In this document: positions 1 to 60,640 of the stretch, piece by piece
Position numbering within the stretch: position 1 is the first letter of the stretch
How the letters are laid out: each line of letters begins with the position of its first letter
NCBI GenBank assembly: GCA_038087875.1
Contig: CM075989.1
Location: forward strand, 14,076,001 to 14,140,000
Length of the DNA stretch: 64,000 bases
Direction: 5' to 3'
Origin: Malacoraja senta
Lineage: Eukaryota
Translations under genes and position numbers: made by a program
The notes under the pieces: generated by a model
Told to the model about the DNA's origin: nothing
The model's database searches: none
The model's input: only the letters and a program-made list of their open reading frames with translations

Positions 1-520
1 ATTGAAGGATATGTTCTTGCGCTCAGATCCTGAATATACAGAGTGCTCTTGGGAAAAAGTTCAGGTACAAGATGCAACTCAACCATTAAATGTGAAAAAA
101 AAACAGTTAACTGCAATGAAGCATCTTGTTCTATAAGAAATGATGTTGTGGATGGATTGGAGTCCAGTGATCTTTCTGAAAGGTATTTATCAAGTGAAGA
201 TAACAGAGAAACAAAAGTTAAGAATGGCTCTTCAGATGAGTCTTTTCAACCATATTGGAAGAAGAAGAGTAAGTTACCAGTTAAACGTGGCCGGAAACCA
301 AAGTCAAACTTGGAAAGGGAAGATTTCCCCACCATGTATCGATGTCAGTATAAGGGTTGCTGTGCTGTTTACAGAGGAGTTGATGAACTTAAGAAACATA
401 TAAAAGAGCAGCATGAAGAGGTACGTGAAAGACCTTGCCCCCACCCAGGAGGTAACAAGGTGTTTCTGATTGATCGCTACCAGCAGCACCATGTAAAGCT
501 GATCCATACAGAAGAAAGAA
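1..520 (+). pseudogene. ZNF276: Processed fragment of zinc finger protein 276
   Basis: ORF 43-588 contains SDLSE, SSDESFQPY and EREDFPTMYRCQYKGCCAVYRGVDELKKHIKEQHEEVRERPCPHPGGNKVFLIDRYQQHHVKLIHTE, matching ZNF276 fingers 1-2 as recalled. No introns; one zinc-ligand Cys is changed to Gly. Confidence 0.85.
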
Positions 521-690
521 CATCTTTACAGATCAGGAGGAAGTGCAAAGCCTTTGGTCACAACTTCGGGAAGACAAACCACATTTGATCAACAATCTTG
601 AAGCATTTTGAGCTCTATCGTATGACCAAGGGTCTAGAGAGAGAGAAGCTGAACATTTTGAAACAGATGGAGCTCTTGAAAGAGATTATG
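519..690 (+). pseudogene. Two joined fragments of a CRACR2A/CRACR2B/RAB44-family coiled-coil region
   Basis: 519-608 reads [30 protein letters not shown] (cf. CRACR2A [23 protein letters not shown]). 610-690 reads [25 protein letters not shown] (cf. [25 protein letters not shown]). The intervening part is deleted; the paralog is uncertain. Confidence 0.65.
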
Positions 691-1385
691 CATAACCCTA
701 TCCAGGAAGACAATGACTCTGACCTGGTGGGTAATCAGTGTGATGACAATCAGGACATTGATGAGGATGGCAATGATGGCGTTTCTGATGAGAAGGACAA
801 TTGCCGTTTTGTTCCCAACCCTGACCAGATCGATGCCGATGGTGACAGCAGAGGAGACAACTGCAAAGACGACTTTGACAACAACATCCCAGATATCTAT
901 GACATGTGCCCCGAGAACAGTGCCATCAGTGAGGCTGACCTGAGGAAGTTCCAAAGGGGACGATGCAGATTGTTCCTAAGTGGGTAGTGCACAACAAGGG
1001 CAGGTAGTGCACAACAATGTTACCTTCTACGTCAACAGAGACCACAATCTATGCTGGCTTTGTCTTTGGCTTGCAGTCCAGCAGCCGCTTCTACGTGGTG
1101 ATGTGGAAGCAGGCCATCCAAACCTACTGGGAGGAGAAGCTGTCCAAACCCATGGATACGCTAGCGTCTAGACCAAGGTGATGAACCCCACCACAGGATA
1201 AGAGGGGGGAGCACCTCACCTGTGCAACGATCTACGAAGAGACTGGCAACACCCTCGGACAGGTGCGAACTTTATGGCACAACCCCAATATCGGCTGAAA
1301 GGATTACACCGCCTACAGGTGGCACCTGATCCATTGACCCTAAACAAGCTTCATCAGGATGGTTGTCAATGGTTGTCAATGAAGA
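691..1385 (+). pseudogene. THBS2: Processed, decayed thrombospondin-2-like fragment (type 3 repeats plus C-terminal domain)
   Basis: [27 protein letters not shown] / [19 protein letters not shown]...[22 protein letters not shown], then in shifting frames [31 protein letters not shown] and TGNTLGQVRTLWH..IG*KDYTAYRWHL. No introns; has stops, frameshifts and internal deletions. Closer to THBS2 than THBS1 by recalled residues. Confidence 0.8.
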
Positions 1386-1391
1386 GAGTGA

Positions 1392-1557
1392 GAACTGGTT
1401 GCCAGTTGGTTTGATGGACTTTGGGGTAGTATTGAACTGGTAGCCATACCTTTTGTTTGATGGACTTTGGGGTACTGTGATATATTATGGCTCTATCATT
1501 CTGCTAATCATTGCTCTAATACTTGCGACCATTGTGTATACCTACCGAGGACTGTGA
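1392..1557 (+). pseudogene. Retroviral Env transmembrane-anchor-like remnant
   Basis: Duplicated (SW/L)FDGLWG motif followed by hydrophobic TVIYYGSIILLIIALILATIVY then TYRGL*. Its position upstream of the PPT/LTR fits the end of env. Confidence 0.4.
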
Positions 1558-2112
1558 ATGTTATCACATTTGATAAAAAGCAGGGAATGAAAGAGCTAAT
1601 AGTCAAATCTAAATTGGAGTCATTCTTCTACAAAAGCATGGCCTAGAAAAACAAAAGAATGACATTGTAAATTATATGGAACACAATATGGAGGACAGAT
1701 TGTCTTTTCAATAAAGACATTAAGATGGTAGCCTGCGTAATAACATGTGCTTCTTTTCAAGGCCATAAAGATGCCAAGATTGAAAAAAATAGCTGATGCT
1801 CCAGAGATAAGTAATAACTTGTTATTGGATGAGCTTGATTTGGACCCAGCTTTCTTATATTCTGAAAGGCTGCAGAATATTTCAGTCATGCCATATTCAG
1901 ACTTGGTAGGAGTGTTATACTGATAAGAAAAATGTATAATTATGCTAATTGTCCTTTGTTCTGTGAGTGGGAGCCCGAGAAGCACTGAGCAACGTTTGTG
2001 CTCATTGTAGATCGCCACTCCCATCTGACGAATCAATTAAAGATTCGTGGTTTTACCTTTAACAGTTTTTGTTACTATCTGCTTTTAAGAAACGAACTTT
2101 GACAAAGGGGAA

Positions 2113-2488
2113 TGATGTCCGTTATTACCAATAACGATATAATGGATTAAGGTATTATAATTGTATGTAGTTGAAATAATGTGATAGTTAATATACAGAA
2201 AGACACAGAGTGCTGGAGTAACTCAGTGGGTCAGGCAGCATCGCTGGAGATTATGAAGTCTGCTGAATTACTTCAGCACTTTGTGTCGTTTCACCTTAAA
2301 ACGAGGGCCGATGCCACCAGTCTGCACAAGCAAGCCTTTCTTCACCGGTTGAAGCGGCTGTTGTTCCGACTCCTGTTGTAAATACCAACATTACGCGCCT
2401 CGTCTCCGTGGGGCTCCCTCCCCTCTCGCCTGACGCTTTGTCTATTGATGGCTGAATAGTTTGTGCTGTTATCTGTTATAGAACATCA
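2113..2488 (+). repeat. Putative 3' LTR of the ERV-like element
   Basis: Directly follows the purine tract; 6-bp terminal inverted repeat TGATGT...ACATCA; contains a short hairpin-repeat insertion at 2202-2287. The partner LTR is not in the window. Confidence 0.6.
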
Positions 2489-3391
2489 GTTAAGTATTTT
2501 TTAACAAGTATAAGAAGTTACCAATATGGAGAAAAAAAGTTACGCATCTTTTAATATTTTGTGGAATTGGAAGAAGTTCTTCATTAAACCTCCAGAGGTC
2601 GTAGCAGTATTATAAATAGTTCAACTGCTAACAATGCTGTCACCATTTTTATTAGATTTGTACCACAGTCAATTGTCATTTTTCAGAAGTTTCAGTGTAC
2701 ATCTGAATGACATTAGATTTGTGGATTTTATGCTATCTGCTTGTCCAACCACCCTTTCTTTGCAGGTCTGTCTGACATTTTTTTTAGAACTAAAAATACA
2801 AAGCTATGTATTTGTAGGTGAGCTTAATCCAGAGTAGCACAGTGTGCCCATTTCTGGGTGACTTGGAACTCACAGGACCCTTGGCATTTCTGTTGCATTT
2901 TAATTTGTTGTCTTTCCTTTCCACCCCTCTCACCCGCAAAGTATTGTCAATAATAGTGTTCTGGCCAGAATTTTTCTCCAGTAAAACTTGTAGTTTAAAA
3001 AAAAAAAAGACAATTCTTATTTAATCACAGAGCAACCAGTTTATACTAATCTTATTTCTCTTGAGACTCTGGTGTTTAAAGGACAAGCTTTCAACCTGCA
3101 TTATGTGTTCTCACTGAGGTCTGTGCCCCCCCCCCCCCCCACCCCACCCCCCGTGACTGAAATGCAGCCTAATTTATTTATGTGTCTGTTTATTTTTTTA
3201 CATATATATTCCATTTTGGGACATATGACAATAAAAAACTCTTGACTTTATGTGTCTGCCTGGATTGATTTCCCTGTGGAGGCCAAGGTCACAGTCATTT
3301 TCTACTTCCAAACGGGATAATACCAGGTTGAAATCTGACATACCTTACAGTTTGCTGCTCACTACTGCATCAAGGAGTGCACCTAAACTCT

Positions 3392-15364: not shown

Positions 15365-17805
15365 CATCTTGGTTGGTACTGGACCCCAAGAAACGGAGTT
15401 TGTCGAGTGCCTCTGAGATGGATTCTTAGAGCAGCTTGCACTGGAGCCTACCAGGGAGAAGGCAACTCTGGATTTAGTGTTGTGTAATAATCTGGATTTG
15501 ATAAGAGAACTCAAGGTAAAGGAACCATTAGGCGGGAGTGACCAGAATATATATTTTAATCTGCGATTTGAGAGGGAGAAGGTAAAATCTGAAGTGTCAG
15601 TATTGCAGTTGAACAAAGGGGACTGTGGAGGCATGAGGGAGGAGCTGGCCAAAATTGACTGGAAAGTGACCCTTAGCGGGGTACACGGTGGAACAGCAAT
15701 TCCAGGAATTTCTGGGAATAATCCTGAAGATGCAGGATCATTTCATTTCAAAGAGGAGGAAAGATTCTAGGGGAGTAAGAGGCAGCCATGGCTGACAAGG
15801 GAAGACAAGGACAGTATAAAACTAAAAGAGAAGACATATAACACAGCAAAAATGAGCGGGAAGCCATAGGATTGGGCAACTTTTAAAGAACAACAGAAGG
15901 AAACTAAAAAGGCAACACGGGGAGAAAAGATGAAGTACGAAGGTAAGCGAGCCAATAATGTAAAGGAGGATAGTAAAAGCTTCTTTAGGTATGTGAAAAG
16001 GAAAGGATTAGTTAAGACAAATGTGGGTCCCTTGAAGACAGAAACAGGTGAATTTATTCTGAGGAAAAAGGAAATGGCAGACGAGTTGAACCAGTACTTT
16101 GTTTCTGTCTTCACGAAGGAAGACACAAACAGTCTCCCTGATGTACTAGGAGACAGAGGATCTAGGATGACGGAGAAACTGAAGGAAATTCACATTAGTC
16201 AAGACATGGTGTTGGGTAGACTGATGGGACTGAAGGCTGATAAATCCCCAGGGCCTGATGGTCTGCATCCCACGGTACTCAACGAGGTGGCTCTCGAAAT
16301 CGTGGATGCATTGGTGATCATTTTCCAATGTTCTATAGATACTGATTCGGTTCCTGTGGATTGGAGGGTAGCTAATGTTATCCCACTTTTTAAGAAAGGC
16401 AGGAGAGAGAAAATTGGGAACTATAAGCCTGACATCGGTAGTGGGAAGATGCTGGAGTCAATTATTAATGATGTAATAGCGGCGCATTTGGATAGCAGTA
16501 ACATGCTCGGTCCAAGTCAGCATGGATTTACAAAGGGGAAATCTTGCTTGACTAATCTTCTGGAATTTTTTTGAGGATGTAACAAGTAAAATGGATAAGG
16601 GAGAGCCAGTGGATGTAGTGTATCTGGACTTTCAGAAAGCCTTTGATAAGGTCCCACACAGGAGATTAGTGGGCAAAATTAGAGCACATGGTATTGTGGG
16701 TAGGGTATTGACATGATAGAATATTGGTTGGCAGACAGGAAACAAAGAGTAGGATTTAACGGTTCCTTTCAGAATGGCATGTAGTGACTAGTGGGGTGCC
16801 GCAGGGCTCGGTGCTGGGACTGCAGCTATTTACAATATAAATGATTTAGATGAAGGAATTAAAAGTAACATTAGCAAATTTGCAGATGACACAAAGCTGG
16901 GTGGCAGTGTGAACTGTGAAGAGGATGCTATGAGGATGCAAGGTGACTTGTACAGGTTGGGTGAGTGGGCAGATGCATGGCAGATGCAGTATAATGCGGA
17001 GAAATGTGAGGTTATCCACTTTGGTGGCAAGAACAAGAAGGCAGATTGTTATCTGAATGGTGTCAGATTAGGAAAAGGGGAAGTGTAACGAGACCTGGGT
17101 GTCCTTGTATATCAGTCACTGAAAATAAGCATGCAGGTGTAGCAGGCAGTGAAGAAAGCTAATGGCATGTTGGCCTTCATAACGATAGGATTTGAATATA
17201 GGAGCAAAGAGGTCCTTCTGCAGTTGTACAGGGCCCGGGTGAGACCACACCTGGAGTATTGTGTGCAATTTTGGTCCCCTAATGTGAGGTGATCTTGCTA
17301 TTGAGGGAGTGCAGCGTAGGTTCACGAGGTTAATTCCTAGGATGGCAGGGCTGTCATATGATAAAAGAATGGAATGATTGGTCTTGTATTCACTGAAATT
17401 TAGAAGGATAAGAGGGGATCTTGAAAAAACATATAAAATTAGTAAGGGATTGTACACGCTAGATGCAAGAAACATGTTCCCGATGTTGGGGGAGTCCAGA
17501 ATCGGGGGCCACAGTTTTCCGAACAAGGGGTTGGCCATTTAGAACTAAAATGCGGAAAAACATTTTCACTTTGAGAGTTGTGCATTTGTGGAATTCCCTG
17601 CCTCAGAAGGCAGTGGAGGCCGATTCACTGGATGCATTCAAGAGAGAGTTAGATATAGCTCTTAGGGCCAGCGGAATCAAGGGATATAGGGAGAAGGGAG
17701 GAACGGGGTACTGATTGTGGATGATCAGCCATGATCACATTGAATGGCGGTGCTGGCTTGAAGGGCTGAATGGCCTACACCTGCACCTATTTTCTATGTT
17801 TCTAT
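15365..17805 (+). mobile_element. CR1 LINE ORF2 (endonuclease end, RT, 3' tail), 5'-truncated and frameshifted
   Basis: DKSPGPDGLHP, PVDWRVANVIPLFKKG, SQHGFTKGKSCLTNLLEFF, YLDFQKAFDKV, SGVPQGSVLG, KFADDTKL; tail ending ctatgtttctat. Confidence 0.95.
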
Positions 17806-23189: not shown

Positions 23190-23757
23190 ATGGAGTATTG
23201 CGTATGGTTTTGGTCTCCAAATCTGAGGAAGGACATTATAACCATGGGGGGGAGTGCAGAGAAGGTTCACCAGACTGATTCCTGGGATGTCAGGACTTTC
23301 ATATGAAGAAAGACTGGATAGACTTGGCTTATACTCGCTAGAATTTAGGAGATTGAGAGGGGATCTTATAGAAACGTACAAAATTCTTGTGGGGTTGGAC
23401 AGGCTAGATGCAGGAAGATTGTTCCCGGTGTTGGGGGGGTCCAGGACAGGGGGTCACAGCTTAAGGATAAGGGGGAAATCCTTTAAGACCGAGATGAGGA
23501 AAAACCTTTTCACACAGAGAGTGGTGAATCTCTGGAGCTCTCTGCCACAGAGGGTAGTTGGGGCCAGTTCATTGGCTATATTTGGGAGGGAGTTGGATGT
23601 GGCCCTTGTGGCTAAAGGGATCAGGGGGTATGGAGAGAAGGCAGGTACGGGATGCTGAGTTGGATGATCAGCCATGATCATATTGAATGGCGGTGCAGGC
23701 TCGAAGGGCCGAATGGCCTACTCCTGCACCTATTTTCTATGTATCTATGTATCTATG
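23190..23757 (+). mobile_element. CR1 LINE 3' end
   Basis: QRRFTRLIPGMSGLSYEERLDRLGLYSLEFRRLRGDLIETYKI; (ctatgtat)n tail. Confidence 0.95.
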
Positions 23758-38330: not shown

Positions 38331-39674
38331 GTATGTATGAATGCAGGCTTTATTGCTGCAACAGTAAGCAATCAAGTTTACCTTAAATTCCATATATTTT
38401 CATTTTGTATTCCATACTGTTTTTCTTCAATTAATTGTTGCTTTCATTATTTTCCAATAAAGACTAGTCTTTTTTTTATTTAAGATTATATTAACATTAA
38501 ATTATTTAATTTAATATGCATTCTGCAAAGCATTTGAATAATTATGGATAAGAAAGGTTCAGAGGGATACGTGACAGGTACAGACAAAAGGGACTAGCTT
38601 GAATGAGGTATCATGGACGAGTTGGGTCAAAGGGCCTGTTTCTGTGCTGCATAACTCGATGACTCTATGGCTTTATAGAATCATAATTCTAATTGAAATA
38701 TAACGTTAGCATGATGATGTCTTCCAAGAGAGATAAGGAGAACAATATATTTCTACTGCTTATTAACCACGAGCGCTTACTTACTTTACTCTTTTTTTTG
38801 CCGATGTTGTGGTTACAAAAGTAAGTTGGGATAAAGTAGGACCACATCAAGGAATGTGAGTGGGTTAGACAAACACATACAGTGGTTTTGTAATACTATT
38901 CAAGCAAGTATGTGTCTAGTTCCTCACTCATTTACATTCTTCATATGAGCTTCAAGTGTTAATGTTAACAGGTTGTATGAGCAAAGGGACAACATGACTG
39001 GACCAAATTTTAAACAGTTTTAGCAGACCTTAGTGGTAAACAACAGCAGAAATTATTATATTTTTCTCCTTTTCTCTGCAAGAAACACTGAGGTTAATTA
39101 AAACATCAGCCAATTCAGTATAGACTTGACATGCTGATTTGTATGGTTGAGTATCACTGCAATGCCTCATTAAACCACAATACTAGATTTAATTTGTAGA
39201 GTTCAGACACTGTGGAATGTAGAGGCCAAAAGTAACTTTGCTACTGAGCCACAAAAAGCTATAGCAATACAGATGACCAAAGATTTGGCAAAAGAGTGGT
39301 TACTAGCGTCATCTTGAAGGAAAAGCGAGATGTAGTGACAAGCGTAAGAATTCCAGAGCTTGGAACCAAAGCTGCGAGCATTGGCCAGTAATTGATTCTC
39401 TGGATTTCCAAGTGAGCAGAATTGGAAGAATATGGAATTCATGAGGACTTGGAAGAGGTTACAAAGATGCAGAGAGATGAGGGTGTGCAAGGACATTAGG
39501 GTAATAATAAGGGTGATGATATTAAATATAAGGCAATAATGGACTGGATGAGACCGGTGTGGAGATAACAAAGATATTATTCATTGCTTCAGCAGCAAAG
39601 TTGCAGTCAGGCAGTGTTAGAGAATTTGAGGTAGGTAAGTTTGGCATTAGAATATTTATATGGTCAGAAGGTCA

Positions 39675-40200
39675 TAGAAACATAGAAAATAGGTGCAGGT
39701 GGAGGCCATTTGGTCCTTTGAGCCAGCACCGCCATTCATTGTGATCATGGCTGATCATCCACAATCAGTAACCTGTGCCTGCATTCTCCCCATACCCCTT
39801 GATTCCGCTAGCCCCTAGAGCTCTATCTAACACTCTTTTAAATTCATCCAGTGAATTGGCCTCCACTTCCTTCTGTGGCAGAGAATTCCACAAATTCACA
39901 ACTCTCTGGGAGAAAACGTTTTTTCTCACCTCAGTCTTTAATGGCCTCCCCTTTATTCTTAGACTGTGGCCCTTGGTTCTGGACTCCCCCAACATTGGGA
40001 ACATTTTTCCTGCATCTAGCTTGTCCAGTCCTTTTATAATTTTATACTTTTCTATAAGATACCCTCTCATCCTTCTAAATTCCCGTGAATACAAGCCCAG
40101 TCTTTCCAATCTTTCCTCATATGACAGTCCCGCCATCCTGTGGATTAACCCCGTGAACCTACGCTGCTCTGCCTCAATAGCAAGGATGTCCTTCTCAAAT
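39675..40200 (-). mobile_element. CR1 LINE 3' end
   Basis: ORF 39765-40136 MAGLSYEERLERLGLYS...; conserved CR1 3' tail. Confidence 0.95.
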
Positions 40201-51710: not shown

Positions 51711-51868
51711 TGTTGTGTATTTGTTGCTTGGAACGGTCTTTAAATAATACTCGGACACGGGAGTAAACTAACAAGCTTCTTTATTCTAAACGCCACCTTG
51801 AGTCTCTCCTGCGCATGCGTACCATTGCGCAAGACATCAAATATGTTAATTATATTACATACCTAACA
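51711..51868 (-). repeat. 3' LTR (158 bp)
   Basis: Direct repeat of 55301-55458 with 2 mismatches; minus-strand AATAAA near 51780; NRF1-like TGCGCATGCG motif. Confidence 0.97.
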
Positions 51869-51883
51869 CTCCTCCCCCTTTAA
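51869..51883 (-). promoter_or_regulatory. Polypurine tract
   Basis: Minus strand AAAGGGGGAGGAG directly abuts the TG of the 3' LTR. Confidence 0.9.
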
Positions 51884-52189
51884 CTTGGAGGCAGGTAACA
51901 CCATTTCTATTTCATACCCCACACTCCTCCCCCTTTAACTTGGAGGCAGGTAACACCATTTCTATTACATAAACAGTACTCCTCCCCTTTTAACTCAATT
52001 TCACCTTCACGATATATGCTATTTACCTAACATATAATTGATTGATACACTGTTGCAAAATTGTATTATTAAAGTCATCTTACAATGCATCCTCATAACT
52101 GTAATAATCTTATCTAAACCTAGCACATAATTTTCATTCCACCCATCTTCCTTAAACCAAATACATTACCCCTTGCTTTATGTGTTATC

Positions 52190-52728
52190 ATTTTCCGTTC
52201 CCTTATGTGTAAATTGCGCACTCTTTCTAATCGCTCTAGCTCTGCCTGTATCTCGGACTCTTCCTTTTTAAATGTCCTAATCTTAATTTGAAGATTTCTT
52301 CCTGTTCCTGATATTCTGCTAAAGTTAACATTTAATTTTCTGCTTCATATATTCGCTTTGTTTTCCTCTGTTTCTGTTCATTATTTGTAGGTGGCACCTG
52401 ACACATGGCTGCAGGTTTTCGTTTTGCTAGCAGCTTTCTCTGTCGCTCAATTTCCTTGCGCTGCGTATTTATCCGCTCTTGTTGTTTAATAAGATTCTGC
52501 AATGCATAACCATGTGTCCATTGCTCAGTGAAGGAGGCTACATGCCAGACTGTATGTAGTGAAGTGTCCTAGTCGCAATCGGTCCTGCATACTTTTGTCT
52601 CGACCGACAAGCCTCTCTTGTTTAGACATTTCTATTAGCAGCTTTTTACTCATTGTCACACATTTATTTAACCATTCTTTGTATCGTTTAAGTATTTTCT
52701 GTTGTTCATCTATTATTCTTAAGTCACA
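52190..52728 (-). pseudogene. TLK2: Processed fragment of tousled-like kinase 2 (coiled-coil region, no kinase domain)
   Basis: [54 protein letters not shown], then after a frameshift [103 protein letters not shown]. The linker resembles TLK2 rather than TLK1; no introns. Confidence 0.9.
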
Positions 52729-53695
52729 TCTCTGGTTCTTCATCAAGAAGTAGGATCTATATTGTCTTTGCAATACAACAATATAGTTTTCTTGCTTCAT
52801 AAGCAAGGTAGTGAGACTGCACTACAATTGCTGGATATTTCAGTTTGAAGAAGTCTTTCCTATACCCAATCATAGGGAGTACTGACTGAATTTGTACAGT
52901 AGCCCTCTTTTGCTTAATCCACTGCCTAACCACCATACCCTTGTAGGCAGCCTGAATGGCAATGGTTGCATACCTCATTGACTGATATTGCACAAACTGG
53001 GCATGCCCTATTTTGCATGCTTTGTACCATCTCTGGATCGAAATGACTGCTTGTCGCATAGCTCTGTAGCATACCCTTGATCGGTACCCACGGAATGAAG
53101 CTTGCAAAGTGACTATAGCCGCCTTTTGCATCAAGAAATATTTTCTTGAAATGCACATCATTAAGAATGACTTAATATGGCGAGCTGCCTTGATTTTCTC
53201 AACCAATTCTCTGGCTTTGACTCCGCTGTAGAAGGCCTGAATACAAACCACTGCTTTTCTCAAACTATTATAATGTCTCACGTGGGCATCTCTTATCTGG
53301 CAAGCCCTGTATCATTGCTGTACAGCAGTGGCGGACCAGCGTAGTTTCTTGAAATACTGACGCTGTTTATGCATTTGATAATAGGTCTGTATGACCTTGG
53401 CATGCACCGCAATTGCTTTCGAACAACCATTCCTCGGTAGGCAGCCTGAAGCAGCACAACGCTGCTGCATACCTTCATGTAAGTTTTGCGATCAGTTTCC
53501 ATTTGAAGGTGTGCCCTATAATGGGTTTGTACTATTATAGCTGCCAATCTCATTGCCCTGTATGGACGGTATACTCGTTGCATTCTAAATACTGCTTGTA
53601 TTACTGTTGCTGCCTTCTGTTTGTCCCGTATCTCTCTCCGTACCTTCATACCCCTGAAGGCAGCTTGAATAGTTAGGGTTGCCCTCTGGATGGTC
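52729..53695 (-). pseudogene. ASPM: Fragment of the ASPM IQ-repeat array
   Basis: Tandem motifs IQAAFRGMKVRR, IQAVFRMQR, VQTHYRAH, LQAAYRGMVVRK, LQASFRGY, IQRWYKA and IQAAYKGMVVR, with ASPM-type periodicity; frameshifts near 53400 and 52795, and a TGA near 53313. Confidence 0.85.
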
Positions 53696-54252
53696 ATGTC
53701 CCTTTGCATTTGACTTCTGTCCCTTTGCATTTGACTTCTGTGCCTTTGCATTTGACTTCTGTCCAGTACATGTGCCCTGTACTGCTGTTGGTAAGCTCTA
53801 ACAGCATCACACTGGCTTTTGGTGTGACCCGTTCCCGAGCACTTGAAACACCTACTATCTCTGACTTTACACATCGCCGGCTCATGGCTGCCTCCACATC
53901 TCCAGCACTTCTTGGAGTTGTGAATCTTGTCTCTGGATGCCCTTGAGGGATTCCATGCCTCCTTTAGTTCAGGCTCCTTGTCTCTGGATGCCCTTGGAGG
54001 TTTTGGCGAGAATTGAGCCATTAATGCCTCCTCACATTCCTCGTACGTTTTACTCGTGGGCTTTGCTGGCTGCAGCAACGCACGTAAGGTGTGATAACCC
54101 TTGCTTCCTAAGCCTACAATGAACCAATCTCTCTTCTTCTCCTCCGCAGTGATATCATTGAAAATGAACCAAGCCTCCAAGACTTCGGTCCATTTCTCAA
54201 AATTATACCCCGAATCTAACTGGGGCACATTTCTTACAATTAAAGTAGCCAT
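53293..54252 (-). CDS. gag: Gag-IQ-repeat fusion ORF, 319 aa (Mag-like Gag N-terminus, two zinc knuckles, ASPM IQ motifs)
   Basis: FEKWTEVLEAWFIFNDI..KKRDWFIVGLG..Y..LRALLQPAKPTSKTYEE..L..QFSPKP; knuckles CWRCGGSHEPAMC and CFKCSGTGHTKSQC; then four IQ-like motifs in the same frame. Confidence 0.85.
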   Translation of the reverse strand: MATLIVRNVPQLDSGYNFEKWTEVLEAWFIFNDITAEEKKRDWFIVGLGSKGYHTLRALLQPAKPTSKTYEECEEALMAQFSPKPPRASRDKEPELKEAWNPSRASRDKIHNSKKCWRCGGSHEPAMCKVRDSRCFKCSGTGHTKSQCDAVRAYQQQYRAHVLDRSQMQRHRSQMQRDRSQMQRDMTIQRATLTIQAAFRGMKVRREIRDKQKAATVIQAVFRMQRVYRPYRAMRLAAIIVQTHYRAHLQMETDRKTYMKVCSSVVLLQAAYRGMVVRKQLRCMPRSYRPIIKCINSVSISRNYAGPPLLYSNDTGLAR

Positions 54253-54853
54253 GCTACCCTGTTGCTATTCAGGTGCACTATGTTCTGTTCTCTCACTGTG
54301 TTCTCTGCACTGGACTTAATCCTTTTACACACTAAGAAGTTATCCAGCCCACTGACTATTACTAATTCTTATAATAATAGATTTATACTAATAAATCAAC
54401 ATTTCATGTTAATAGCAAACTAGAACATTTAAACCATATACCTGCTATGCACACAGATTTACTTAAATCATTGATACAGTGTCCATACATTAAATTCATA
54501 CAGTCCAGCTTTTACTGTGAGTAATTCACTAGTCCGACCTGACTGTCTCTGGACTCCGATGCCTCAGCGACCTCTCGGGCTGTCCTCACCGTTGCTGTCT
54601 TCAGCGGGCTGTTGCTGGCTTTTGCTGGCTTTTGCTGCTTTGCTGGCTTCACGGCTGGCCTGGCTGTTGCTGGCTTTTGCTGCTTTGCCTGTTGCTGGCT
54701 TCATGGCCTGGCTGTTGCTGGCTTTGTCCCGCTCTTCTCACGGCCGGGCCCGCTCTTCTCGCGGCCTGGGCTTTCTCTGCTTATGGCCGTCTCTCGCGGC
54801 CGAGCTGGCTCTGCTCACGGCCGTCTCTTGTGGCCGGCAGGAGACTCGGCTGT

Positions 54854-55015
54854 CGTCGGTGGCGGTTGCCGGACCTGTCCGTGGGCTGCACGGTACTGGC
54901 CCTCACCCGACGTCGGTGGCGGCTGCTAGGCCTGGCCGTGGGCTGCACGGCCCTGGAACTCACCCGACGTCGGTGGCGGCTACTGGGCCTGGATGTTGGC
55001 TGCACAGCCCTGGAA
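54854..55015. repeat. 57-bp GC-rich tandem repeat (about 3 copies) in the element's 5' leader
   Basis: CGTCGGTGGCGG recurs at 54854, 54911 and 54968. Confidence 0.85.
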
Positions 55016-55285
55016 AGCGTTCCAGGTAAGCTGACACCGCTGTCCTGCTGGTTAGGCTTCTAGCTTCCAGCTGCGCTCTTCGGTGACACTTACTGCCTCG
55101 CTTGTTTTCCGTGCGCTCTTGCTTCCCGTTCCGACCTTTCTTTTCTTTGGCGCCAATTCAAATACCATTTGGCGCCAAATCTTTTTGCTTGGTGCCGTTC
55201 CAATTTGTGTCGCCAAATACCAACTCTTTTAAAACTTTTTTTCTTTTCTCTTGGCAGTACTCGTTCTTCTCTTCTCAGTTCTTTG

Positions 55286-55298
55286 ATCCTCGTCGCCA
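55286..55298 (-). promoter_or_regulatory. Primer binding site, tRNA-Ser(GCT)
   Basis: Minus strand TGGCGACGAGGAT, 2 nt after the 5' LTR; complementary to the recalled 3' end (ATCCTCGTCGCCA) of vertebrate tRNA-Ser(GCT). Confidence 0.85.
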
Positions 55299-55300
55299 AT

Positions 55301-55458
55301 TGTTGTGTATTTGTTGCTTGGAACGGTCTTTAAATAATAATCGGACACGGGAGTAAACTAACAAGCTTCTTTATTCTAAACGCCACCTTGAGTCTCTCCT
55401 GCGCATGCGTACCATTGCGCAAGACATCAAATATGTTAATTATATTACATAACTAACA
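55301..55458 (-). repeat. 5' LTR (158 bp)
   Basis: Direct repeat of 51711-51868; adjacent to the PBS. Confidence 0.97.
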
Positions 55459-58637: not shown

Positions 58638-59885
58638 GCAAGGGTGCTTGACTAATCTTTTGGAATTTCTTGAGGATGTAACTAGGAAAATGGACAAGGG
58701 AGAGCCAGTGGATGTAGTGTACCTGGACTTTCAGCAAGCATTTGATAAGGTCTCACATAGGAGATTAGTGGGCAAAATTAAGGCACATGGTATTGGGGAT
58801 AGAGTAATAACATGGATAGAAAATTGATTGGCAGACAGGAAACAAAGAGTAGGGATTAACGGGTCCCTTTCAGAATGGCAGGCAGAGACTAGTGGGGTAC
58901 CTCAAGGCCCGGTGCTGAGACCGCAGCTATTTACAATATATATTAATGATTTAGATGAAGGGATTAGGTAACATTAGCAAATTTGCAGATGACACAAAGC
59001 TGGGTGGCGGTGTGAACTGTGAGGAGGATGCTATGAGAATGCAGGGTGACTTGGACAGGTTGGGTGAGTGGGCATATGCATGGTACAAGCAGTTTAATGT
59101 GGATAAATGGGAGGTTATCCACTTTGGCAGCAAAAACAGGAAGGCAGATTATCTACATGGTGTCAAGTTGGGAAAAGGGGAAGTACAATGGGATCTGGGG
59201 GTCCTTGTTCATCAGTCAATTAAAGTAAGCATGCAGGTACAGCAGGCAGTGAAGAAAGCGAATGGCATGTTGGCCTTCATAACAAGAGGAGTTGAGAATA
59301 GGAGCAAAGAGGTCCTTCTGCAGTTGTACAGTGCCCTAGTGAGACCACACCTGGAGTATTGTGTGCAGTTTTTGTCTCCGAGTTTGAGGAAGGACATTCT
59401 TGCTATTGCGGGAGTGCAGCTTAGTCAATGGGGACAAGGTTAATTCCCAGGATGGCGGGACTGTTATATGCTGAGAGAATTGAGCGGCTGGGCTTGTATA
59501 CTCTGGAATTTAGGATGAGAGGGAATCTTATTGAAACATATAGGATTATTAAGGGTTTGGACATGTTCCCGATGTTGGGGGAGTCCAGAACCAGGGGCCA
59601 CAGTTTAAGAATAAGGGCTAAGCCATTTAGAACGGAGATGAGGAAACACTTTTTCACACAGAGAGTTGTGAGTCTGTGAAATTCTTTGCCTCAGAGGGCA
59701 GTGGAGGCCGGTTCTCTGGATACTTTCAAGAGAGAGCTAGATAGGGCTCTTAAGGATAGCGGAGTCAGGGGATAAGGGGAGAAGGCAGGAACGGGGTACT
59801 GATTGTGCATGATCAGCCATGATCACATTGAATGGTGGTGCTGGCTCAAAAGGCCGAATGGCCTACTCCTGCACCTATTGTCTAT
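58638..59885 (+). mobile_element. CR1 LINE RT and 3' end
   Basis: CLTNLLEF, YLDFQQAFDKV, ISKFADDTKLGG and LVRPHLEYCVQF; highly similar to 16545-17800. Confidence 0.95.
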
Positions 59886-59889
59886 AAGG

Positions 59890-60640
59890 GTGTGTTCTCA
59901 GCCCCTTACTGTACCCTTTACACTCATGACTCTCGCCAAACTTTGCAGTAACTCCATTTACAAGTTTGTAGAAGACACCACTGTAGTAGGCCGGATCTCG
60001 AACAATGACAGGATACTGAATACAGGAAGAAGATAGAGCTCTTAATAACATAGTGTCAAGCCAACAACCTCTCCCTCAGCAAGATGAAGGAGCTTGTTAT
60101 TAACTTCAGGAATCGTGATGGTGGACACAATTCAGTGAACATCAATGGTTCTGAAGTGGAGATGCTTCTAGGCATAAATATCACCAATCATTTGTTCTGG
60201 ATGAAGCACATTGAAGCTACAGAGAACAAAGCACACCAATGTCTCTATTTCCCCAGTCTCCTGCATGTCTCAAATGATGCTTTTCAAAGTCTAAAGATAC
60301 ACTGTGCTCCATCGGGATGCTCTTCTGCTCTGCCCAATAACCTAAGAAATTGCAAAGAGTTGTGGAATTATGGGCAAAAACTTGAAAGCGCGTGCCACCA
60401 GATCCAGGAACAGCTTCTTCTATTCTCTCAGACTACTGAACGGACCTTTTACAATCTAAGGGTGTACGTCATAAAGCTGTAACATTATATTCTGCAGTCT
60501 GGTATTTTTCTCTTTGAATTACCTTCTGAATTTGTGTGTGTCTGCATTGTACTTGTGTGTCATACAGTTTGACTGGACAGCATTGCACACCAGGTTTTTC
60601 ACTGTATATTGGTACACATGACAAAAATAAACCAGAACCA
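59890..60640 (+). mobile_element. Rex1/Babar-like LINE remnant
   Basis: NSIYKFVEDTTVVGRISNND, MKELVINFR and KAHQCLYF. Confidence 0.7.

Follow-up and report, generated by a model that had tools for sequence, protein, structure and literature searches.

The stretch of DNA analysed here (64,000 nucleotides, hereafter the window) begins with a chimera that belongs to an amplified multi-copy family, common to related, probably skate, genomes, and is not a one-off. We propose, with a probability of roughly 0.8, that positions 1 to ~2050 represent the 3' part of an old, broken copy of a multi-copy, non-autonomous LTR element of gammaretrovirus type (class I ERV-like), whose LTR starts at 1588. Its cargo consists of three adjoining pieces, followed by a short env-like segment, a polypurine tract and the LTR, termed LTR A (Table 1). 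Further downstream lies a second candidate LTR, termed segment B. This copy itself is dead.

Table 1. Features at the start of the window
Feature	Position	Strand	Details and basis
Mosaic of ZNF276, coiled-coil and THBS2-like pieces	1-520, 521-687, 688-~1375	+	Pieces adjoin without spacer
Host ZNF276 mid-CDS piece, spliced	1-520	+	aa ~334-518 of skate protein; continues upstream of the window; homolog search and alignment
Host-like coiled-coil piece	521-687	+	Two frames (474-611 and 589-987) joined near 608
Fusion ORF, coiled-coil piece into thrombospondin type-3 repeats	589-987	+	Stop to stop, first ATG 622; ORF list
THBS2-like (subgroup A) piece, type-3 repeats into C-terminal domain	688-1375	+	3' end of CDS missing; Pfam, PDB
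Non-THBS segment (env-like candidate)	1381-1557	+	20-nt duplication (1409/1455), transmembrane-like helix, then stop
Polypurine-tract-like segment A	1575-1587	+	12/13 purines
LTR A, likely family LTR	1588-2103	+	TG start, TATAAT 1935, ATTAAA 2036; tentative CA end 2103
Second purine tract	2104-2112	+	9/9 purines; seen in the preliminary description
Segment B, possible second, rarer LTR	2113-2488	+	TGATGT...ACATCA, 9/12 terminal inverted repeat
Very high-copy hairpin repeat (MITE/SINE-like), unrelated to the mosaic, inside segment B	2197-2292		z -4.8; depth about 1e7

A homolog search with the first piece revealed skate ZNF276 as the best match (E 1e-75), with Amblyraja and Leucoraja ranked first, followed by Rhinoraja, Mobula and sharks. 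The piece shares 163 of 170 aligned residues with skate ZNF276, in agreement with the ZNF276 fragment named in a preliminary description of this DNA. Window positions 5-100 and 106-519 correspond to aa 334-518 of the Amblyraja/Leucoraja protein, with 32/32 and 131/138 residues identical, respectively; the reading frame shifts in the A-run 95-103, and 14 codons are deleted internally near 286. Comparison of 16 chondrichthyan proteins with P0002 showed four in which a skipped block ends at aa ~339/340 or ~364-366; these ends would most simply mark exon borders. The piece is collinear across both isoform-inferred borders and holds no intron, indicating that its template was spliced.

The third piece yielded Pfam matches to TSP_3 (E 9e-12) and TSP_C (E 2e-10 and 7e-9). 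Thrombospondins were hit in four PDB searches, one of them weak (E 0.38), and each time THBS2 chains outscored THBS1 and COMP, a paralog call with human structures only as its reference; the THBS2 fragment reported earlier is thereby supported. The piece aligns to ~290 residues of the human chain and contains no insertions relative to it. Its damage includes internal deletions (one near 770), frameshifts, several stops and short tandem duplications (983/1003 and 1359/1369).

The coiled-coil piece between them, which may be CRACR2A/EFCAB4B-like, probably stems from a third captured host gene, and its break near 608 is a probable internal deletion. Homolog, Atlas, Pfam and PDB searches, whose short queries weigh little either way, gave no relevant CRACR2 relative. 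Thus, of the three abutting intron-less host fragments described earlier, the abutment, the strand and the ZNF276 and thrombospondin identities stand, and the CRACR2-family identity was left unconfirmed by the searches.

All pieces lie on the forward strand without poly(A) between them, as had been noted. Within 1-2600, A-runs of at least 7 occur at positions 95, 1783 and 2532 only, none of them at a piece junction. With no such run at a junction and both identified pieces stopping mid-CDS, the L1 hallmarks (poly(A) tail, intact 3' end) are absent. The in-frame joint between coiled-coil and THBS2-like pieces, previously given as ORF 598-987, was likewise recovered, with the frame open over 589-987 and departing from the THBS frame near 955. 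An Atlas protein search with ORF 589-984 returned only TSP_3 clusters at <=0.89 and unnamed clusters. Eight ORFs of the window were looked up in the protein collection and none was present, and metagenome scans were empty.

Downstream of the thrombospondin piece, segment 1381-1557 sits in the position expected of an env-TM remnant and is a candidate for one by position. The env-TM-like peptide of the preliminary description is matched by a hydrophobic helix at 1480-1536 (mean Kyte-Doolittle 2.6). Its env kinship gained no relative from Pfam, a search of 1.84 billion representatives (0 matches with a 37-aa query), viral contigs or the PDB, which are weak tests with so short a query.

The multi-copy nature of the mosaic was revealed by contig depth. 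Fourteen runs from 8 organisms and 8 studies contain 0.35-0.46 of the words of 1-2700, a share that may partly stem from LTR A and the hairpin repeat, and none reaches half. From four of the 23 listed runs (X1, X3, X6 and X16; organisms A, B, E and B, respectively), contigs were placed on 1-3000. The median summed contig depth over 1-1500 was 6905 in X1, 5707 in X3 and 1576 in X6, and 68 in the small run X16. The single-copy contig depth is ~30 (33.9 on the unique flank in X3), so that the mosaic stands at roughly 230, 190 and 50 times the single-copy level in X1, X3 and X6. Summed depth overcounts where contigs overlap, dips locally at indels and is not a copy number; the mosaic likely has tens to hundreds of copies, presumably dispersed. 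The listed holders of 1-2700 include no RNA runs; X16 is probably DNA and was excluded as evidence of transcription.

The junctions themselves are shared. Bridging contigs, defined as having at least 31 nt on both sides, were sought among 32 listed pieces, the longest of more than 214,000. The ZNF276/coiled-coil junction is bridged by 3 of these 32 (from X1, X3 and X6), the 608 break by 4, the coiled-coil/THBS junction by 3, the THBS deletion near 770 by 5, the THBS/env-like junction by 2 and the border between polypurine tract and LTR by 2; none of the 32 spans the whole mosaic. One X16 contig tracks the ZNF276 piece to 520 and then diverges. Because contigs from organisms A, B and E bridge the junctions as well as two internal breaks, the chimera and some of its damage predate the amplification. 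Two variants of the family were also seen, a 62-nt skip over the THBS/env-like junction (1371-1434; X1 and X3) and a 43-nt back-jump, or tandem duplication, in the U3-like part (1891-1933; X3).

LTR A is marked by both sequence and depth. The purine tract 1575-1587 is followed by AATGAAAGA, and positions 1586-1594 are identical (9/9) to the first nine bases of the MLV U3 att. The consulted sections on MLV give this U3 att start and place the purine tract directly upstream of U3 (PMC12789967). A scan of both strands of the 64-kb window gave a single occurrence of GG[AG]AATGAAAG, a rarity that is partly post hoc, as the motif was noticed after the depth step. This short motif is suggestive only of a gammaretrovirus-type (class I ERV-like) LTR start. 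At the border between polypurine tract and TG, the depth in X3 rises from 10,117 at 1581 to 82,598 at 1699. Over 1601-2000 the depth reaches 37,500 (X1), 66,100 (X3) and 26,200 (X6), which is 5.4, 11.6 and 16.6 times that of the mosaic. This excess of 1588-~2046 over the interior is the pattern expected from solo LTRs. The purine tract and LTR start (1575-1594), the hairpin repeat (2197-2292) and the multi-copy status had all been overlooked in the preliminary description.

At ~2046, 5 nt after the ATTAAA, the high-copy similarity falls, with the depth dropping from 9448 to 602 in X1, from 11,173 to 1507 in X3 and from 6876 to 663 in X6. A clean inverted repeat was not found at the tentative CA end at 2103, nor was a match to the MLV-like U5 att end in the window or a second copy of 1588-2103 within it. 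As the similarity stops at ~2046 and no clean inverted repeat follows, the U5 of LTR A is only putative.

The family is old. Sister copies differ from this copy by 6-14%, with a median of 9% (23 pieces, biased to long ones); the X1 copies show 92 differing places, 60 of them transitions. Private changes of this copy amount to ~4-5% and are mostly transitions. Contig 24 of X3, 1567 nt long and with a depth of 33.9, aligns collinearly to 2257-2996 at ~95.5% identity. By this alignment, organism B shares the flank as well as the 3' part of segment B, and the unique flank differs from that of organism B by about 4.5%. The insertion would therefore be old, and probably older than the split from organism B.

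The purine tract at 2104-2112 and the TGATGT...ACATCA segment behind it, both described earlier, were found again. The proposal that this segment is the LTR of the element fared differently. Over 2301-2500, segment B has 0.09 (X1), 0.10 (X3) and 0.22 (X6) of the interior depth, and at only ~0.1-0.2 of that depth it is ruled out as the LTR for the bulk of the family; its role as the family LTR is not supported. The 3' part of segment B is a low-copy repeat at about 10-20 times single copy on average, but contig depth is near single-copy at 2120 (25.6, 0 and 32.8 in X1, X3 and X6) and at 2310 and 2318 (33-106), that is, 0-3 times single copy. The window holds no second copy of 2113-2488, apart from the hairpin repeat. 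Relatives of that repeat (~100-230 nt) lie at ~9380, 11440, 26430, 27540, 34650, 41270 and 45880, and Rfam gave two sub-threshold matches, of which the mir-1756 match is the hairpin repeat. A 6-bp inverted repeat was rejected as stand-alone LTR evidence, since 361 of 1500 randomly chosen TG starts are followed by one at a distance of 150-1000 nt. The CpG observed/expected ratio, from small counts, is 0.88 in 2293-2488 versus 0.19-0.43 in the mosaic, LTR A and flank. From its retained CpG, 2293-2488 may be younger or unmethylated.

Two readings follow for the 3' end of this copy. In one, LTR A has diverged up to ~2103 and has a repeat of separate origin as its neighbour. In the other, this copy represents a small subfamily that arose when family RNA, whose 3' end lay in the R region of LTR A, was recombined into another LTR element; 2113-2488 would then be the true 3' LTR of this copy, as the preliminary description has it, and LTR A (U3-R) would now be internal. 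The latter refines the main reading, and we regard it as possible but less likely than not. It would explain why depth at the level of LTR A stops right after the poly(A) signal, as an RNA would end, and why the depth at 2047 (602, 1507 and 663) is of the same order as that over 2301-2500 (648, 578 and 341) before it falls to flank level after 2500. The low depth at 2047, however, adjoins indels, where dips are common. Segment B brings its own purine tract and a 9/12 terminal inverted repeat, which is expected by chance in 309 of 5121 cases, but 9-purine tracts ahead of TG occur at 0.39 per kb in the window. Contig joints from 2302-2306 to 2402-2408 in all three large runs indicate that parts of segment B co-occur elsewhere; on the other hand, two such LTRs per copy should give more than the 0-3 times single-copy depth at 2120, 2310 and 2318.

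An origin of the mosaic by LINE (CR1/L2-type) reverse transcription or DNA rearrangement is unlikely; in that case it would have come to lie next to a solo LTR, and a DNA transposon or duplications, segmental or tandem, would have multiplied it. LINE-like fragments are abundant in the window, the 5' end of the element, with its 5' LTR, PBS and TSD, lies beyond the window and the dispersal of copies is only deduced, all of which leave room for such an origin. The mosaic, however, lacks a poly(A) tail and a 3' UTR, and the polypurine tract and LTR start directly after the cargo in the same orientation. Duplication of a block including the flank would sit poorly with sister copies that are 6-14% different, yet have a single-copy flank beyond 2500. 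A functional local chimeric gene with the pieces as its exons is highly improbable. The one in-frame fusion (589-987) and the well-conserved ZNF276 residues would fit it, but the reading frame shifts at ~100, ~608 and ~955, the THBS piece is interrupted by several stops, internal deletions recur in other copies and the mosaic is multi-copy; chance alone also puts one in three such junctions in frame.

For the LTR element that we favour, we propose the following course of events. Host mRNAs would have been co-packaged with ERV RNA and joined by template switching of the reverse transcriptase, the mid-CDS pieces displacing most of the viral coding sequence, with a short env-like remnant, the polypurine tract and the LTR staying behind. 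The bridging contigs show that amplification began only after the junctions and two or more internal breaks had formed. An autonomous helper presumably acted in trans and spread the chimeric RNA to tens or hundreds of loci, the multi-copy state being observed, and LTR-LTR recombination may have left the surplus of solo LTRs. This copy then decayed, as seen in its stops, frameshifts and ~4-5% private changes. The captured cargo is most likely a passenger. The earlier idea of an ERV-like element that serially transduced host mRNAs is thus kept for an ERV-like, multi-copy LTR element with spliced mid-CDS host pieces, and dropped for 2113-2488 as the family LTR; the captures may have been serial or have happened in a single round.

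A bolder version appears improbable. In this version, a skate ERV lineage built the three-gene cargo by repeated capture and spread it to hundreds of loci; the stretch from the mosaic to the R region was then re-captured by a second LTR family, giving LTR A and segment B in tandem, and some members keep the in-frame fusion of coiled coil and thrombospondin calcium repeats intact under selection. If a selected fusion and LTR exchange were real, ERV-driven exon shuffling would be a source of new skate proteins.

The window contains other mobile elements. A complete gypsy-type LTR element lies on the reverse strand at 51711-55458, with 158-bp LTRs that are ~99% identical, TG...CA ends, a 5-bp TSD (GATAT on the forward strand) and PBS-like and PPT-like sites; three occurrences of its purine tract, in short tandem repeats, directly precede the 3' LTR (51869-51995, reverse strand). 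A gag-like ORF (weak zinc-knuckle match) continues in frame into IQ repeats (Pfam IQ, E 1e-12), presumably ASPM-like, and a further host-like piece at ~52560-52750 is, we assume, TLK-like. The gypsy LTR, LTR A and segment B are mutually unalignable above shuffle level. The gypsy element, which has no relation to LTR A or segment B, is a second carrier of host cargo and younger than the mosaic. Decayed LINE-like reverse-transcriptase copies, which we take to be CR1-like and which are 74-84% alike, were found at 15400-17800, 23190-23750, 39670-40200 and 58640-59890.

Within these 64 kb, the mosaic and the gypsy element are two unrelated LTR elements with host cargo, which suggests that families of this kind recur in cartilaginous-fish genomes. 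Such families offer direct study material for capture, internal deletion and LTR exchange, and copies of the mosaic could inflate or confuse the annotation of ZNF276 and thrombospondin paralogs. We found no published description of this mosaic family; subscription journals or the Repbase/Dfam skate libraries may hold one.

Among known systems, maize Bs1 reportedly has a hybrid ORF. It is an LTR element with partial sequences of three unlinked cellular genes (as cited in the consulted part of PMC5131818). The mosaic resembles it in the three-piece cargo but, unlike this plant element, has a retroviral-type LTR start (PMC5131818). Metazoan LTR-mediated retroposition, as described in the consulted sections of Tan 2016, replaces internal ORFs of LTR elements by truncated, poly(A)-less mRNA pieces, and yields two-gene chimeras in fly and, in mouse, a 'Super' retrocopy of four genes, with later re-mobilisation in the form of non-autonomous elements; the species set given there includes no cartilaginous fish (PMC5131818). 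Like those retrocopies, the identified pieces of the mosaic are truncated at both ends mid-CDS and lack poly(A), whereas the re-mobilised retrocopies in these sections occupy few insertion sites and the mosaic stands at an order of tens to hundreds of copies common to related organisms (PMC5131818).

According to the consulted part of the crocodilian study, CrocERV29 (KIT-ligand) and CrocERV31 (nectin3) have nine and six copies, respectively, with intact ORFs under purifying selection (PMC4299795). Similar to these, the mosaic belongs to a probable ERV-type lineage amplified with host cargo that was captured before speciation. In contrast to their one gene each, it carries three broken mid-CDS pieces, in far more copies and with no sign of an intact protein (PMC4299795). 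With MLV, as far as the consulted sections describe it, the element shares a purine tract directly before U3 and the nine identical att bases; unlike MLV, it shows within the window neither a matching U5 att end nor gag, pol or a provable env (PMC12789967). In the light of these partly consulted sources, a vertebrate germ-line LTR/ERV-type element appears to shuffle pieces of unrelated genes and to amplify the chimera well beyond the few fly or crocodilian copies. The capture mechanism is already known from Tan 2016, the crocodilian ERVs and maize Bs1; what is new here is a multi-gene, broken cargo and a much larger amplification in cartilaginous fish, possibly together with LTR exchange.
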